The position numbers were made by a program, and so were the translations under genes. From assembly GCA_001778985.1 (NCBI GenBank), contig MFIU01000001.1:190934-254933 (forward strand): 64,000 nt of DNA, in the 5' to 3' direction. The notes under the pieces are model-generated. The model made no database searches and was not told the origin of the DNA. It saw only the letters and a program-made list of their open reading frames with translations. The stretch comes from Candidatus Giovannonibacteria bacterium RIFOXYD1_FULL_48_21 (lineage in GTDB: Bacteria > Patescibacteriota > Minisyncoccia > JACPKW01 > UBA11713). Below are positions 9,120-27,802 of the stretch, one piece after another (the first letter of the stretch is position 1; each line of letters starts with the position of its first letter).

Positions 9120-9964
9120 TTGTTGACGGCAAAGCGCTTGCGGAGAAAATAAAAGCCGAATTGAAAGCGGATGTTTCGAAGCTAAACAAAAAAATTCGAC
9201 TGGCGGTGGTTAAAATCAGCTCGGATGCCGCGACTGAAAAATTTTTGGAGCAGAAAAGGAAATTCGCAGAGGCGATTGGAGTGGATGTCAGAATTTATGA
9301 AATACATCCGGATATCTCCACGAATAAACTCCGCGAGAAAGTTTCAGAGATTGTGCATATCAAAGAAAACAACGGGGTCATAGTTCAGCTTCCTTTGCCG
9401 CCGCAGATAAACACGCAATATATTCTGGACGCGATAGTTCCGGAAAAAGACCCGGACATGCTTTCTTCTAAAAGCTGGGGAGCGTTTGCGGCCGGATCCG
9501 CCCGCCGGCGGACAAAGATTCTGCCGCCGGTTGCGGGAGCGGTTAAAGCCGTATTTGATGAGCATAAAGTCGAGATTCGCGATAGAAACGCAGTAGTGAT
9601 AGGCGCCGGCCGCCTGGTGGGCAAGCCCCTCGCGACCTGGCTTTTGAACGCCGGGGCCACGGTTTCCGTGATTCACAGGGGCACCAAGAATCCGGAAGAA
9701 TATACTCGAAAAGCCGATATTATTATTTCCGGAGTTGGAAAACCGAAATTGATAACTCCTGTGATGGTGAAAGACGGGGTGGTGGCGATTGATTGCGGCA
9801 CTTCGGAGTCCCCGCCTGGGGCGGGGCAGGCCTCCAGGCAGGTGGTCGGAGATATTGACCCTGGAGTTTCAGAGAAAGCTTCTCTTTTCGCGCCGGTTCC
9901 GGGCGGGGTCGGCCCGGTTACGGTCGCGATGCTGTTTAAAAATCTAGTTGAGCTGTCAAAATGA
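9116..9964 (+). CDS. folD: Methylenetetrahydrofolate dehydrogenase/cyclohydrolase
   Basis: VQLPLP, EKDPD, VGKPLA, PVPGGVGPVTVAML. Confidence 0.95.
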   Translation: MIVDGKALAEKIKAELKADVSKLNKKIRLAVVKISSDAATEKFLEQKRKFAEAIGVDVRIYEIHPDISTNKLREKVSEIVHIKENNGVIVQLPLPPQINTQYILDAIVPEKDPDMLSSKSWGAFAAGSARRRTKILPPVAGAVKAVFDEHKVEIRDRNAVVIGAGRLVGKPLATWLLNAGATVSVIHRGTKNPEEYTRKADIIISGVGKPKLITPVMVKDGVVAIDCGTSESPPGAGQASRQVVGDIDPGVSEKASLFAPVPGGVGPVTVAMLFKNLVELSK

Positions 9965-10428
9965 ATTATCTGGATTTGTTGATTATTTTTCTCGCGAAAT
10001 ATCTCGGCTGGGCGCTTGGAATTCTGGCGGTTTTTATTTTTTTAAAAAATAGGCGTCTTCTTTTGGAATCCTTCCTCTCGGCCGCGGTTGCGCGTTTCGG
10101 GATTACGGACCTTATCCGCTATTTTTACAATAGGCCGCGGCCATTTGAAGTTGGAGATTTCACTCCTTTGATTTCGCATGAATACGGCTATTCTTTTCCA
10201 TCTGGGCACGCCGCTTTTTTCTTCGCGCTCGCGACTGCGATATTTTTATACAACCGCCGCTGGGGCGCGGTGTTTTTCATCGGCGCTATTTTAATCAGCC
10301 TCGGCCGCGTTTGGGCTGGCGTTCATTGGTACTCGGACATTTTAGGAGGCGCGATTGTCGGTATTTTGACGAGTATTTTAGTTAATTTTCTTGTCAGAAA
10401 ATTTCAAAGGCCCGGGTCAAGTGTCTGA
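9961..10428 (+). CDS. PAP2 family phosphatase (undecaprenyl-diphosphatase-like)
   Basis: RPRP, SFPSGH, RVWAGVHWYSD motifs with TM segments. Confidence 0.9.
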   Translation: MNYLDLLIIFLAKYLGWALGILAVFIFLKNRRLLLESFLSAAVARFGITDLIRYFYNRPRPFEVGDFTPLISHEYGYSFPSGHAAFFFALATAIFLYNRRWGAVFFIGAILISLGRVWAGVHWYSDILGGAIVGILTSILVNFLVRKFQRPGSSV

Positions 10429-10704
10429 CCGCGGGCCTTGAGGTTGGTAAGGAACATCCGGTATAGATTTTATAAATTCATTATATTTTATTTCTTCAAG
10501 TTCCCTCCTAAGTAGTGCCTCAATGTGTCCAATGGCTTCTCCGGAGAGCCGCACCAGATATGACTTTCTGTCATTTCCACCTTGACGCGCTTTATTGAAT
10601 TCCGCGAGAATTTCTTCGAGCATGGCCCGCACGTCAACCGACTTTTTTCTGCGGCCGCCGAGATGCAGGTATAGCGCAAAACGTCTCCACCATAAAAAAG
10701 TCAT
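10417..10704 (-). CDS. Hypothetical protein
   Basis: 95-aa ORF with a strong SD (AAAGGAGG) upstream; no recognisable motif. Confidence 0.55.
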   Translation of the reverse strand: MTFLWWRRFALYLHLGGRRKKSVDVRAMLEEILAEFNKARQGGNDRKSYLVRLSGEAIGHIEALLRRELEEIKYNEFIKSIPDVPYQPQGPRSDT

Positions 10705-10743
10705 TTTATCCTCCTTTAATCTTTAAATTTTTTAAATTGCTGT

Positions 10744-10830
10744 TGGTGCCGCGGGAGGGGGTCGAACCCTCATGAGCTTTCGCTCGCAGGATTTTGAGTC
10801 CTGTGCGTCTGCCAGTTCCGCCACCGCGGC
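10744..10830 (-). tRNA. tRNA-Leu(CAA)
   Basis: GCCGCGG acceptor, anticodon arm CAGGA-CTCAAAA-TCCTG, long variable arm, GGTTCGACCC, encoded CCA. Confidence 0.96.
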
Positions 10831-10837
10831 ATATTAT

Positions 10838-11074
10838 TTATTTTAATTGATCTAGAAATTTTCTTCCTTGCCCACTTTTAAGAAATTTTTCTCTTTTGCG
10901 TGCTTCCTCGTATGAAGCACAATTTTCAACAAGTACAGTTTCAAATGTTGCGTACGGTTTCGTAGTCAAATTATATCCTTCGTTGTGCTGTTTTAATCTT
11001 CTCGCGAAATTATTGGTAATTCCTACATATCTGTAGTTGTGTTTCATACTTTTAATTACATATACATGCACCAT
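10838..11074 (-). CDS. Small GIY-YIG nuclease
   Basis: VYVI...YVGITNN..RRLKQHN.G...EARKREKFLKSGQGR. Confidence 0.92.
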   Translation of the reverse strand: MVHVYVIKSMKHNYRYVGITNNFARRLKQHNEGYNLTTKPYATFETVLVENCASYEEARKREKFLKSGQGRKFLDQLK

Positions 11075-11174
11075 AGGATTTTGAGCTTGCCCGCCTTAGG
11101 CGGGTCGTGCGCGGTCGCCAGAGGCGACTAAATCTGCCAGTTCCGCTTTACCCGCCAGAGGCGGGCACCGCGGC
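11075..11174 (-). pseudogene. Displaced 5' half of tRNA-Leu interrupted by three 19-nt hairpin insertions
   Basis: Removing 11086-11104, 11114-11132 and 11147-11165 leaves GCCGCGGTGGCGGAACTGGCAGACGCGCACGACTCAAAATCCT, 41/43 identical to the 5' half of the intact tRNA-Leu. Confidence 0.93.
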
Positions 11175-11212
11175 CCGTCTCGTCTCGCCTCGTCGAGACA
11201 AGCAATACCTCG

Positions 11213-11241
11213 AATTTAAAAGTTTTTTAGCTTATTGTCAA
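11213..11241 (-). promoter_or_regulatory. Putative sigma70 promoter for the tRNA-Leu/GIY-YIG unit
   Basis: TTGACA - 17 nt - TAAATT on the minus strand. Confidence 0.55.
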
Positions 11242-11270
11242 TTTGATTAATTTTTTATACGATTTTATAT

Positions 11271-12170
11271 ATGGCGGAATTTGGAGAACCCAGAAGAAGT
11301 TCAAGTATTTTCTTTATCGAACTTGACCGCATCAAGCCCAATTCCATGCAGCCCCGCACCGAATTCGATGAGGGGCGGCTTTCTGAACTCGCGGAATCAA
11401 TCCGGCAGTATGGGGTGCTGCAGCCGCTGGTGGTTCTCCGCCAGGAGAAGGCCACACCCACCGGCGTTGTCGCTGAATATGAGCTTATTGCCGGCGAGCG
11501 CCGTTTGCGCGCGGCCCGCTTAGCGGGCCTTCGCGAGGTGCCGGTTATCATCCGGCAGGAGTCCGCGGACAAAATTAAACTTGAGCTCGCCTTGGTGGAA
11601 AACGTCCAGCGGGAGGATTTAAACGTGGTTGACCGCGCCCAGGCCTTCCGCCGGTTGAATGAAGAATTCGGTCTTGGTCACAGGGATATCGGCGCGAGAA
11701 TCGGAAAATCGCGCGAATACGTTTCAAACTCGCTGCGTCTTTTGTCCCTTCCTTCCGAACTCCAGGCCTCGTTGCGGGACGGACGCATAACCGAAAGCCA
11801 CGCCCGGCTGTTGCTGACTTTGCAGTCTCAACCCCAGGAACAAAAAGCGCTCATGGACGATATTATTTTCAGAGGGCTTAACGTTCGCGAAACCGAACGC
11901 CTCACCAAAGAGCTTACCGCCGGAGTTAAAAAAGAAATCAAAAATCTTGACCCGGAAACAAAGACTTTGGAAGAAAAGCTCGCCGCGGCCCTGGGGGCTC
12001 GCGTCTATATTTCAAAAAATGAATCAGGCGGCCGGGTTTCGATTGAATTTTTTTCGCCGGAAGAATTAAGGGCTTTTGTGGAACGCTTCGAGCCCGAACC
12101 TATGAGCCCAGAAGGACAAGTGGTTTTGGCCGAGGTTCGGCCGGAAGACTTGGAAGAGTTTACGATCTGA
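11271..12170 (+). CDS. parB: ParB/Spo0J partition protein
   Basis: QPRTEFD, GVLQPL, LIAGERRLRAA, ENVQREDL, HTH region. Confidence 0.95.
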   Translation: MAEFGEPRRSSSIFFIELDRIKPNSMQPRTEFDEGRLSELAESIRQYGVLQPLVVLRQEKATPTGVVAEYELIAGERRLRAARLAGLREVPVIIRQESADKIKLELALVENVQREDLNVVDRAQAFRRLNEEFGLGHRDIGARIGKSREYVSNSLRLLSLPSELQASLRDGRITESHARLLLTLQSQPQEQKALMDDIIFRGLNVRETERLTKELTAGVKKEIKNLDPETKTLEEKLAAALGARVYISKNESGGRVSIEFFSPEELRAFVERFEPEPMSPEGQVVLAEVRPEDLEEFTI

Positions 12171-17708: not shown

Positions 17709-19568
17709 ATGAAGCTTATTTCAAAGAATATCATTGTAGCTTTTCTTATTTTGATGCTCCTGGCCGGGGCGTATTCGGTTTTGCAGGAAAACCTCCGCTC
17801 CCAGGACGAATTATCCCTTTCCGAACTCGTCAAAAAGATTAACGCCGGCGAGGTTGGGAGCATTGTCGTCAGGGGAGACGAGCTTGAGGTAACCTTGAAA
17901 AACGACGCGGTTTTCCTTGCTAAAAAGGAAGCCGAGAGTTCGCTTTCTGAAACCTTGGCCAACTACAGCGTTTCCAAAGAAGCGCTGGGCCAGGTTTCAG
18001 TTGAAGTAAAAAATCCCTCGGGCTTTTTATTCTGGCTCGCGGCCCTCCTGCCGTTTCTGCTTCCGTTTCTGCTGATCGCGCTTTTTTTCTGGCTAGCGGC
18101 CCGGCAGGTACAGAGGGCGAATATTCAAGCTTTCACCTTCGGGCAATCCAGAGCCCGCGTGGTTCAGCCTGATTCCAAAAAAGAAAGGGTTACTTTTCGG
18201 GACGTGGCCGGAGTTAAAGAAGCCAAAGAAGAGCTCGTTGAGATTGTGGAATTTCTGCGCGCCCCAAAGAAATTTTTAGATATCGGCGCCAGGATTCCCA
18301 AAGGGGTTTTATTGATGGGAGCTCCGGGCACGGGAAAAACGCTTTTAGCGCGAGCGGTGGCGGGGGAGGCCAACGTTCCGTTCTTTCATATCTCGGGTTC
18401 TGAATTCGTGGAGATGTTCGTGGGAGTCGGGGCTTCGCGAGTCCGCGATTTGTTCAAAATGGCTAAGCGCTCCGCGCCGGCGATTGTATTCATCGATGAG
18501 ATTGACGCGGTCGGGCGTCATCGCGGCGCGGGACTTGGCGGCGGACATGACGAGCGGGAGCAGACCTTGAACCAAATTCTGGTTGAGATGGACGGCTTTG
18601 AGCCGCACGAGTCCGTGATTGTGATGGCTGGCACCAATCGTCCGGATGTTCTGGACCCCGCGCTTCTGCGTCCCGGAAGATTTGACCGCAGGGTGATTCT
18701 CGACCTTCCGGATATTAACGACCGCGAAGAGATTTTAAAACTTCACGCTTTGAAAAAACCTTTAGGCAAGGAAATAAGCCTTAGGCTCATTGCCGAGCGC
18801 ACCCCGGGTTTTTCCGGAGCGGATTTGGCGAACTTGATGAATGAGGCCGCGATTCTGGCGGCGAGAGAAAACCGGAAAACAGTAAGCCAGCTGGATTTAA
18901 CCCGCTCTATCGAGAAAGTCCTCCTGGGTCCTGAGCGGAAAAGCCACATCCTTTCGCAGAAAGAAAAAGAAATTTCAGCTTATCACGAGGCCGGGCACGC
19001 CCTGGTGGCCGCAGTTTTACCTAATGCTGACCCCGTCCACAAAATTACAATTGTGGCCCGCGGCCGGGCGGCCGGCTACACTCTGAAACTTCCCTCTGAA
19101 GACCGCCATCTCTACTCTCGGCCGAATTTTTTGGATGAGCTGGCCGCCGCGCTCGGCGGTTACGCTTCGGAGAAACTGGTTTTCGGAGAACTTACCACCG
19201 GCTCGGCCGATGATATTCGCAAGGCCACAATGATTGTGCGGGATTTGGTAACAAGATACGGCATGTCTGAGAAAATCGGGCCCATAACCCTCGGCGAGAG
19301 AGATGAACTTGTGTTTCTGGGTAAGGAGCTCGGAATCGAGAAAAATTATTCCGAAGAAACGGGCCGGCTGATTGATTCTGAAATGAAGCGCTTCATGAAA
19401 AACGCGTTTTCGCGCGCCCTGGGAATCTTGAGAAAATACCGAAAGGTGCTCAACGCTCTCGCCGGACGTTTGATTGAAAACGAGACCATCGAGCGCGAGG
19501 AGTTCGAAGCGATTTTGAGCTCTTTCGGTCTGAAGCAAATCCTGCTCGCGCCTGTAGCTCAACGGTAG
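17709..19568 (+). CDS. ftsH: ATP-dependent zinc metalloprotease FtsH
   Basis: Two TM segments, [29 protein letters not shown]. Confidence 0.97.
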
Positions 19569-19622
19569 AGCACGGAGCTTATACCTCCGCGGTTCTAGGT
19601 TCAAATCCTAGCAGGCGCACCA
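19548..19622 (+). tRNA. tRNA-Ile(UAU)
   Basis: GCGCCTG/CAGGCGC acceptor, anticodon arm CGGAG-CTTATAC-CTCCG, GGTTCAAATCC, A-CCA end; overlaps the ftsH 3' end. Confidence 0.92.
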
Positions 19623-24535: not shown

Positions 24536-24555
24536 GAGATTATTTTACACTTTTG

Positions 24556-24627
24556 CGCCCTCGAGAGGAATTGAACCTCTATCACAAGCTCCGCAAGCTT
24601 GCATTCTGTCCGTTGAACTACGAGGGC
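24556..24627 (-). tRNA. tRNA-Arg(GCG)
   Basis: GCCCTCG/CGAGGGC acceptor, anticodon arm CAAGC-TTGCGGA-GCTTG, GGTTCAATTCC. Confidence 0.93.
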
Positions 24628-26833: not shown

Positions 26834-26889
26834 AAGATTTATTATTCGATTTTAACAGTTTTCGGTCCCTCGATAAAAAATGCTGTCTG

Positions 26890-26976
26890 CGGTAGGGGTG
26901 AGATTCGAACTCACGGTGCCATTTCTGACACAGCAGTTTTCAAGACTGCCGCCTTAAACCACTCGGCCACCCTACC
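26890..26976 (-). tRNA. tRNA-Ser(UGA)
   Basis: GGTAGGG/CCCTACC acceptor, GCAGT-CTTGAAA-ACTGC, long variable arm, GTTCGAATC. Confidence 0.96.
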
Positions 26977-26977
26977 G

Positions 26978-27235
26978 TTACTCTTTTAACGAGTCTGTTA
27001 ATCTCGATAATAAATGTCTTTTTTCGGTATATTTTTCTTTCAATTCTTTTTCTCTTTTGAAAGCATCATATTTACTTGTAAATGCTTCGTAATATATAAG
27101 CTTCCAAGGCCTCCCCCTTTTAGTTGAACTTACGCCTCCACTGTTATGTTCTACTAATCTTTTTTTGAGATCACCGGTACAACCTATATATTTTGTACCT
27201 GTGATACTGCTTTTAAGGAGATAGACGTAATGCAT
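26978..27235 (-). CDS. Small GIY-YIG nuclease
   Basis: YVYLLKS..KYIGCTGDLKKRLVEHNSG..WKLIYYEAF..AFKREKELK; stop is 1 nt before the tRNA. Confidence 0.92.
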   Translation of the reverse strand: MHYVYLLKSSITGTKYIGCTGDLKKRLVEHNSGGVSSTKRGRPWKLIYYEAFTSKYDAFKREKELKEKYTEKRHLLSRLTDSLKE

Positions 27236-27238
27236 TTT

Positions 27239-27293
27239 ATTCAACCACTCCCTCGGCCGTAGCCCGGCCTACGGGCGAGGCTGCCACCCCACC
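27239..27293 (-). pseudogene. Displaced 5' end of a tRNA-Ser interrupted by a 31-nt hairpin
   Basis: Removing 27251-27281 leaves GGTGGGGTGGCAGAGTGGTTGAAT, versus GGTAGGGTGGCCGAGTGGTTTAAG in the intact tRNA. Confidence 0.82.
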
Positions 27294-27294
27294 T

Positions 27295-27531
27295 TCATCG
27301 GCCGTATTTTTTTAGGCGGTAAGCGTCCGAGTGGTCTATCAGGTTTTCTTTATCGGCTCTGTCTATTATTTTGTTTAGCTCTTTTTTTGACAAACCAGAT
27401 GGTCGCAAAGTTTCTGGCTTGGCCATCTTAAAAAGCTCTTTCTTTTCTTTTGGGCCTAACTTCAATCCCTTGACTAAACCCTTAAGTTCTTTACTTGATT
27501 TGATATGACTTTTTTCGTCAAACAGTCCCAT
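27295..27531 (-). CDS. Small basic hypothetical protein
   Basis: 78-aa Lys-rich ORF. Confidence 0.65.
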   Translation of the reverse strand: MGLFDEKSHIKSSKELKGLVKGLKLGPKEKKELFKMAKPETLRPSGLSKKELNKIIDRADKENLIDHSDAYRLKKYGR

Positions 27532-27544
27532 GTTGTTATTTTAG

Positions 27545-27802
27545 TTATTTCTTAATAAAAGGCAATCGGATTAATTTCTTAAAGGCCTCTCCAGATTTAT
27601 AAGATTTGATCTCGATCTCTCTTTTTCTGGCAGACGTTTTGTCGGTCATGAATTCTTTATAAATTAGTTGCCACTGGCGGTAAGCTTTTGTGGAACGAAC
27701 CTTCCCAGCATTGTGAGACCTTAGTCTTTTATCCAGGTTTCCCGTGTATCCAATGTAGTGGCGCTGGAAATTTATACTTTTTAGGATATAGACCTCATAC
27801 AT
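27545..27802 (-). CDS. Small GIY-YIG nuclease
   Basis: VYILKS..HYIGYTGNLDKRLRSHNAG.VRSTKAYR.W...ARKREIEIKSYKSG. Confidence 0.92.
   Translation of the reverse strand: MYEVYILKSINFQRHYIGYTGNLDKRLRSHNAGKVRSTKAYRQWQLIYKEFMTDKTSARKREIEIKSYKSGEAFKKLIRLPFIKK

Follow-up and report, generated by a model that had tools for sequence, protein, structure and literature searches.

SegB of phages T4 and T6 is described as a free-standing GIY-YIG homing endonuclease of tRNA clusters that is cotranscribed with tRNAs, spreads itself together with tRNA genes, and can amplify tRNA segments (PMC2330249, PMC13096335). The Ssn proteins (cd10448) are described as single-domain GIY-YIG nucleases that act on single-stranded DNA (ssDNA) and occur with NTS/SRM hairpin repeats, and the authors saw in the NTS-ssnA-NTS arrangement a resemblance to insertion sequences and REP/Y1 systems (PMC11893778); the main text of that paper does not contain the words tRNA, CPR, or Patescibacteria. 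Tyrosine-integrase islands in tRNA genes are collected in Islander, where 159 of 3919 have a 5' fragment (PMC4383910). In a survey of GIY-YIG proteins, repair roles and mainly vertical descent were predicted for the Slx1-like/UPF0213 group, and the question of molecular parasitism was left open for other members (PMC1564403). A report on insertions in CPR rRNA genes does not use the word tRNA in its main text (PMC11270868).

Here, we analyzed a tRNA-Leu(CAA) locus in which a small GIY-YIG gene stands between part of a tRNA gene and a complete one. The locus lies in a 64-kb stretch of DNA (the window), which belongs to a 714-kb genome that was rated complete (G000), as is consistent with Patescibacteria. 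A preliminary description had proposed that the locus was a minimal mobile unit, that is, a nuclease gene with a replacement tRNA 5' half that captures the promoter of a tRNA gene and restores the tRNA.

RESULTS

Layout of the tRNA-Leu(CAA) locus

All of the features of the locus are on the minus strand. A sigma-70-type promoter-like site (11213..11241; TTGACA-17 nt-TAAATT, 10/12 consensus matches) was the sole minus-strand match within 10400-11400 and is oriented divergently from parB. It is followed by a 100-nt leader (11174-11075), and an additional GC hairpin in the interval between the two (11182..11199) was not seen in G004, a genome of the same family. The leader adjoins the ATG (11074) of a 78-amino-acid (aa), single-domain GIY-YIG nuclease gene (10838..11074; PF01541). 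A 7-nt AT-rich spacer (10831..10837) separates the stop codon from a complete tRNA-Leu(CAA) with an encoded CCA (10744..10830); no other Leu-CAA gene was called in the genome. The whole unit of leader, nuclease gene, and tRNA measures about 0.35 kb. The promoter, start codon, ORF, 7-nt gap, and complete tRNA were all found where the preliminary description had placed them. The 43-nt tRNA-Leu 5' half that it reported was confirmed in length but is not contiguous, because three 19-nt hairpin inserts split it into four pieces (9+14+9+11 nt).

Each insert consists of a GC hairpin (15 nt) and a tail (4 nt), and the middle one is reversed. The first tRNA piece (gene nt 1-9; 11166..11174) does not differ from the intact tRNA. 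Insert 1 (11147..11165) follows gene nt 9, a position common to G004, G014, and G352. The second piece (gene nt 10-23, the D arm; 11133..11146; repeat family D7) is an exact 14-nt repeat of 10808-10821 and is followed, after gene nt 23, by insert 2 in reverse orientation (11114..11132). The third piece (gene nt 24-32; 11105..11113) contains the two differences from the intact tRNA that had been noted earlier; both are real and lie in the 5' strand of the anticodon stem, and the letters of this piece are those of the cassette leaders in G233, G014, and G085. Insert 3 (11086..11104) is located at the start of the anticodon loop, as in G233, G352, and G085, and the fourth piece (anticodon loop plus 4 nt of stem; 11075..11085) runs up to the ATG. 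When the first 43 nt of the tRNA were aligned with gaps to the 200 nt before the ATG, the score was 52.3. This match is far above chance, since 5000 random, tRNA-free 200-nt pieces of the genome yielded a maximum of 25.9 and a mean of 14.0.

The preliminary description had named an assembly artifact as a danger to its reading. Contigs of runs X9 and X14, which were not flagged as source, cover approximately 10806-11700 with no differing letters and no gaps, so the duplication is not an artifact of assembly. Joints that skip the nuclease in this comparison have short sides, probably represent tRNA genes of other organisms, and were left out. As had been stated, the unit contains no integrase or transposase. 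The genome has one tyrosine recombinase far from the locus (C1:77816, the sole PF00589 match) and four Y1 transposases (PF01797), none of which is at the tRNA-Leu(CAA) locus.

Directly downstream of the tRNA, a 95-aa ORF (10417-10704) had no Pfam or NCBIfam match. The window also contains a tRNA-Ile with a TAT anticodon (19548-19622) and a tRNA-Arg with a GCG anticodon (24555-24627), and ARAGORN called no tRNA-Asn in the whole genome.

The nuclease

A profile search identified the 78-aa ORF as a GIY-YIG domain (PF01541; 55.5 bits, E 7e-15), which spans residues 2-67 and is followed in the structural model by one helix. The catalytic residues Y5, Y16, G18, R26, H30, and E62 are all present and were kept in 96-100% of 85 tRNA-linked homologues; judged by these residues, the nuclease is catalytically intact. 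The dN/dS ratio was 0.13-0.17 in three close nuclease pairs, and by this measure the gene was shown to be under purifying selection. The GC content of the gene is 32%, compared to 46-54% in the flanking genes.

The predicted structure had a pLDDT of 94.9. In a Foldseek search in which the best E value was 2.5e-3 and no match fell below 0.001, ranks 1-13 were occupied by UPF0213, HIGLE, Slx1, and EF2693 structures (top folds 1zg2, HIGLE, and Slx1), I-TevI was ranked 14th, and UvrC appeared from rank 21. A phmmer search yielded weak matches, which were to two members of the Slx1/UPF0213-like group only, and NCBIfam contained no family for the protein. Based on the model, the window nuclease is a minimal, stand-alone GIY-YIG protein of the Slx1/UPF0213-like type. 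The likeness to SegB suggested in the preliminary description thus did not extend to the protein, which at 78 aa has no C-terminal DNA-binding region behind its nuclease domain.

Empty sites and tRNA alleles

The orthologous site was compared in nine genomes of the same family. Six of them (G002, G005, G006, G007, G008, and G009) have a plain, single tRNA-Leu(CAA), which is the empty site that the proposal of a mobile unit had predicted. In G004 the site holds the same cassette as the window, and in G001 a fragment-plus-hairpin remnant without a nuclease precedes a different Leu-CAA allele within inverted repeats; the locus is unassembled in G003. A TTGACA box is located at a comparable place before the empty tRNA-Leu of G006 and G008 and before the G004 cassette. 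The position of the promoter is therefore equal in empty and filled sites, in agreement with the suggested capture of a tRNA promoter.

In five of the six empty sites, departures from the window's intact tRNA are confined to the variable arm and to a few loop positions, and the tRNA downstream of the nuclease gene thus looks native. The two divergent bases belong to the leader segment that is common to cassettes of other families. In G233, the leader matches the allele of its relatives G124 and G307, behind identical upstream sequence, and both acceptor strands mark the intact tRNA as a different allele. This comparison makes allele replacement in G233 clear, with a foreign whole tRNA substituting for the host allele. 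Because other alleles of group f18 are 92-93% identical, tRNA identity alone is no proof of a transfer between the lineages of G233 and the window. At eight split loci, including the tRNA-Glu locus of G000, the 3' half of the old gene persists downstream of a new, whole tRNA, and in most cases a hairpin-bearing direct repeat is present on either side; these eight were read by eye and were the only ones counted from a screen in which 13 of 82 loci had downstream T-loop matches, approximately 3 of them spurious. Hence, the idea of an old allele upstream and a new one downstream was not supported at the window locus, where the downstream copy is the family's empty-site allele, and held for G233 and the split loci. 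The proposed replacement of a tRNA 5' half was too narrow, since the cassettes of G233 and the split loci carry a whole foreign tRNA.

Tandem stacking was observed in G035 and at Leu-CAG of G004. Together with the remnants, these arrays point to repeated gain and decay of cassettes.

Small GIY-YIG genes upstream of tRNAs

We surveyed 130 small GIY-YIG genes, of which 10 were from G000 and 120 were from a set of 25 genomes. Pfam searches of the 25 genomes, which were picked partly for multiple matches but regardless of gene context, yielded 179 matches; 143 loci were retrieved, and 120 genes were kept after long UvrC-type frames, pieces shorter than 60 aa, and duplicates were dropped. Fifty-eight of the 130 genes end within 100 nt of the start of a same-strand tRNA (chance, about 0.6%), and the other 72 are located elsewhere than just upstream of a tRNA. 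A 5' fragment of the same isotype was found upstream of 40/58 nuclease-linked tRNAs versus 7/85 other tRNAs, which is the enrichment that a mobile unit of the proposed kind would produce. In G000, 6 of the 10 genes end at a same-strand tRNA start; there, the fragment counts (3/6 versus 5/39, p 0.06) were not significant when taken alone. The preliminary description had also regarded a 5' fragment as unlike integrase islands, and this holds for most islands but not for the minority noted above (159/3919; PMC4383910).

The cassette layout recurred at approximately 30 anticodon types and was also present in records titled Bdellovibrionales, Chitinophagaceae, and Omnitrophota. Genomes had 3-17 Pfam matches each, and broken copies occurred. 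A plasmid collection yielded no match. Viral contigs contained 11 loci, and the 5 that were inspected had tRNA-linked or inverted-repeat layouts and identified no vector.

In many of the tRNA-linked nuclease genes, the ORF extends into the tRNA by exactly 10 or about 15 nt and ends at a TAG located in the 5' part of the tRNA. Related nucleases in L213 (an Opitutaceae record) and L246 lie in duplications that reach, or are centered on, the T loop (tRNA-Pro; 3'-type fragments); the nuclease family is thus not confined to 5' halves.

Further loci resembling the cassette were found in G000. In the window itself, a second cassette (26889-27802, minus strand) has a hairpin-split 5' fragment and an 85-aa GIY-YIG gene before tRNA-Ser(TGA). 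About 310 nt farther upstream lies one more GIY-YIG gene, which has a hairpin leader of its own. Outside the window are cassettes at tRNA-Glu(CTC) (C2:59398-59960), where the old gene is split around the nuclease and a new whole tRNA; at tRNA-Trp (C3:4132-4520), where the leader is a different allele and the ORF runs into the tRNA; and at tRNA-Tyr (C3:6518-6918). Nuclease-free cassettes, in which a whole tRNA of the same specificity stands between short inverted repeats inside an older tRNA gene, were observed in G000 for Val-TAC, Pro-CGG, and two Thr genes (C1:38287-38359, C1:72208-72281, C3:20971-21043, and C4:106349-106422) and for Leu-CAA in G001 and G307 (L236; L241). About 30 other small GIY-YIG genes, two of them in rRNA, are located between short inverted repeats away from tRNAs. 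A separate GIY-YIG clade with the same kinds of inverted repeats is found off tRNAs in G000 (C2:210488-210745 and C2:123971-124228) and inside 16S and 23S rRNA genes (L053 and L043).

Conservation of the hairpin leader

The alignment of leaders indicated that the hairpin leader is more conserved than the ORF. Across 7 genomes from 6 families, the stem of insert 2 is invariant; its loop is variable, and both this loop and the silent sites of the ORF vary freely. Because the stem is kept while these positions vary, the leader is likely to be a functional part and not a dead scar. The upstream half had earlier been taken for a dead old gene, and that view was too simple: the hairpins are an integral, conserved component of the unit.

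A search of 400 genomes for the D-loop hairpin-junction pattern matched 7, which belong to 6 families, and a reversed control gave no match. All seven have the nuclease and a Leu-CAA gene. Six were known cassettes; the seventh, G352 (ParB 43%), was found by the pattern alone and has the three hairpin positions of the window, the nuclease, and the tRNA. Folding as a DNA hairpin was obtained for 44 of the 47 inserts in the 44 leaders that aligned well. The genome contains 66 leader-like hairpins compared to 4-9 in simulations, and 12 are near tRNAs compared to 3.4 expected. One leader-like hairpin unit is inserted in frame in folD (window positions ~9497-9516). When the precursor was folded at equilibrium, the first 7 nt of the leader paired with the 3' acceptor strand of the tRNA and the cloverleaf was missed.

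Spread of the nuclease

Among 300 genomes of the class, the best 10 non-self homologue loci were all at tRNA-Leu(CAA), as were 16 of the 29 homologue loci overall, plus one cut by a contig end. On a tree of the 58 tRNA-linked nucleases, amino-acid labels changed 34 times compared to 44.9+-1.5 times after shuffling (p 0.002), whereas host-family labels changed 30 times compared to 30.8 (p 0.35) and genome labels had no signal. On this tree, nuclease lineages were shown to be tied to tRNA isotype and not to host family, although ancient vertical paralogy would likewise yield an isotype signal. Isotype-bound nuclease lineages cross families and phyla, and nuclease clade is coupled to both hairpin type and tRNA isotype.

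Two comparisons speak against paralogy as the explanation. In two cases, the nucleases that two genomes of one family have at a shared locus fall in separate clades (AU p 4e-7 for f18 and 2.5e-4 for f45); these p values are overstated, since the groups were named after the tree had been seen and the genomes are related. The closest homologue of the window nuclease, at 70.5% identity, is that of G233, a member of another family (ParB 52%), ahead of that of G004 (61.5%; ParB 72%). Monophyly of the window and G004 nucleases was only weakly rejected (p 0.065 with and 0.023 without one long-branch row), and the window copy may therefore have been partly inherited within the family. With the empty orthologous sites, the common promoter position, and the fragment enrichment, this nonvertical spread upheld the core of the earlier proposal, namely, a minimal mobile unit.

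DISCUSSION

A model for the cassette

We propose that the unit is a selfish cassette, composed of a plugged tRNA front, a GIY-YIG gene, and a tRNA of the same specificity, that spreads through putative nicking and host recombination. We consider this reading probable, with reservations set out below. The unit is likely to be a very small selfish DNA element that would spare its host by leaving a working tRNA.

The cassette would arrive as DNA. Natural transformation is a candidate route because the genome has ComEC and DprA; RNase P RNA is also present. By analogy with Ssn and Slx1, the nuclease may recognize hairpin-bearing or branched ssDNA and introduce a nick close to its leader or to the tRNA gene. 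The leader would then recombine with the 5' part of the host tRNA, and the carried tRNA with the host 3' part, which would place the unit behind the tRNA promoter and often replace the host allele. Sequence upstream of an intact tRNA is a 5' leader that RNase P removes. For this reason, insertion into the front portion of a tRNA gene would be neutral: the leader and ORF would be tolerated as one long 5' leader, and the nuclease would be translated from the same transcript as the tRNA. Loss of the nuclease would leave fragment-plus-hairpin scars.

Several observations run contrary to the selfish cassette. Classical homing should destroy its target, and here the intact tRNA beside the gene leaves the putative target in place. 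Loci that have no nuclease in cis show hairpins and replacement of a whole tRNA as well (Val-TAC, Pro-CGG, and Thr in G000, and G001 and G307). In addition, the four Y1 transposases and the tyrosine recombinase could act in trans. The weak rejection of monophyly with G004, the nonsignificant fragment counts in G000 alone, and the 72 small GIY-YIG genes located elsewhere than just upstream of a tRNA weigh in the same direction.

A bolder version of the selfish cassette is possible but, in our estimation, doubtful. It would make the unit a new class of autonomous element of about 350 bp whose sole enzyme is a hydrolytic, Slx1-type nuclease. Lineage-specific ssDNA cutting at hairpin-tagged tRNA fronts would be followed by host recombination that inserts the element and its substitute tRNA. 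The nucleases would also mobilize hairpin repeats and nuclease-free cassettes, which would give these bacteria a continually swapped, horizontally inherited tRNA set.

Alternative explanations

The alternative that survives best, although we regard it as unlikely, is that the nuclease is a passenger or helper. REP/MITE-like hairpins would be moved by Y1 (RAYT-like) transposases or by host recombination, with tRNA genes as hot spots. The genome does have four Y1 transposases, the inserts lack target duplications, and their oriented hairpin-plus-tetranucleotide build resembles REPs. The same hairpins are found away from tRNAs, including the in-frame copy in folD, and inverted-repeat cassettes replace tRNAs with no nuclease in cis. 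However, inspection by eye of 150 nt on each side of the four Y1 genes did not reveal the 19-nt unit, and a passenger role leaves unexplained both the joint travel of nuclease clade, hairpin type, and tRNA isotype and the purifying selection on catalytic residues.

Classical double-strand homing of the SegB type is improbable. Here, the nuclease would cut the empty allele, gap repair would copy the unit, and the hairpins would protect the duplicated half. A free-standing GIY-YIG gene in a tRNA context, the existence of empty and filled sites, and allele co-conversion in G233 would fit this mechanism, and SegB is reported to tolerate some sites in its own genome (PMC2330249). The protein, however, has 78 residues without a C-terminal DNA-binding region, and UPF0213, HIGLE, and Slx1 outrank I-TevI among its structural matches. 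At the window locus, the intact tRNA agrees with the allele found in the empty sites of relatives, which indicates that the target was not destroyed, and the hairpin stems are conserved across families beyond what mere disruption needs.

Slightly less probable again is a host-domesticated module, in which the structured leader, together with RNase P processing, would adjust the expression of a repair, restriction, or defense nuclease that benefits the host. Purifying selection and the Slx1-like fold are compatible with such a module, and SsnA is reported to modulate transformation in Neisseria (PMC11893778). Pairing of the first 7 nt of the leader with the 3' acceptor strand might serve as a switch; this is weak evidence because the folding program misses the cloverleaf. 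Presence at any one tRNA is patchy, genomes carry 3-17 Pfam matches along with broken copies, and isotype-bound lineages cross families and phyla, all of which speak against domestication.

An intron-like insertion spliced from RNA or an assembly artifact is very improbable, since the in silico pairing of the leader with the 3' acceptor strand is outweighed by a tRNA that is whole without splicing, a C-C mismatch in the anticodon stem when the upstream half is joined to the 3' half, and the lack of any group I/II or other intron family match in Rfam, and since the X9 and X14 contigs and the orthologous filled sites reject an artifact.

Implications

If the selfish cassette is real, the tiny "hypothetical GIY-YIG" genes that are numerous in ultra-small bacteria would be selfish elements. 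Whether Slx1-type members can be parasites, a question open since the GIY-YIG survey (PMC1564403), would be answered. The cassette would be a transposase-free mobile element below the typical size of an insertion sequence, and it would account for the strong divergence of tRNA alleles between close relatives in ultra-small bacteria. Much like the Ssn tool family, it would also offer a naturally occurring set of 80-residue nucleases whose DNA targets are lineage specific and can be predicted.

Comparison with known systems

A literature search, mostly of the main texts of open papers, did not find a description of the cassette, although the supplementary tables on Ssn may list some of the proteins; the cassette is apparently undescribed in print. 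The literature compared, in the parts covered, was PMC11893778, PMC2330249, PMC13096335, PMC1564403, PMC11270868, PMC4383910, and PMC10293859. Its nearest known counterparts are Ssn, SegB, and islands with a 5' fragment, and it fits none of them completely. In a defining feature, it departs from each of four kinds of system: the SegB type, Ssn, integrase islands, and IS200/REP elements.

The Ssn unit, in its published description, is likewise a stand-alone GIY-YIG gene of ~80-100 aa between short oriented hairpin repeats, but that description includes no target duplication or carried tRNA (PMC11893778). The published degenerate form of the SRM motif was found within 200 nt of 0/130 genes, which sets the cassette apart from Ssn, and of its two matches in G000 none is at a cassette leader. 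SegB shares the intron-free GIY-YIG gene in a tRNA context, and a further feature in common with the window cassette is that an orthologous site exists in both empty and filled forms. As described, SegB has its own C-terminal NUMOD3 region, cuts double-stranded DNA at a T-psi-C motif, and is located between intact phage tRNAs with no isotype preference (PMC2330249, PMC13096335). In contrast, the window unit is chromosomal, single-domain, inside a duplicated, hairpin-plugged 5' half, and isotype-bound.

Like integrase islands, the cassette is an element flanked by a tRNA and a displaced fragment, with the gene restored, and its 5' fragment lies upstream of the tRNA on the same strand and in the correct order. 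Islander, however, requires an integrase and a length of 2-200 kb (PMC4383910), whereas the window unit is ~0.35 kb, has no integrase, and carries hairpins in its fragment. IS200/IS605 and REP-RAYT elements have an HUH Y1 transposase in the unit; the window unit does not, and the four PF01797 genes are elsewhere. Prokaryotic Slx1-like/UPF0213 proteins share the minimal domain that ends without a C-terminal extension, but the account of them in the survey reports no association with tRNA genes (PMC1564403). The CPR rRNA insertions are small GIY-YIG genes in structural-RNA genes of similar bacteria; they differ in being non-intron, inverted-repeat-flanked insertions in rRNA that their authors considered to lie outside homing (PMC11270868). 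The rRNA loci L053 and L043 found in our survey are two insertions of this kind.

By analogy, the mode of action of the cassette would be that of a free-standing homing endonuclease with repair of the target, and in appearance the cassette resembles the Ssn unit. Endonuclease genes with partial target duplication have reportedly been found in fungal mitochondria as well.
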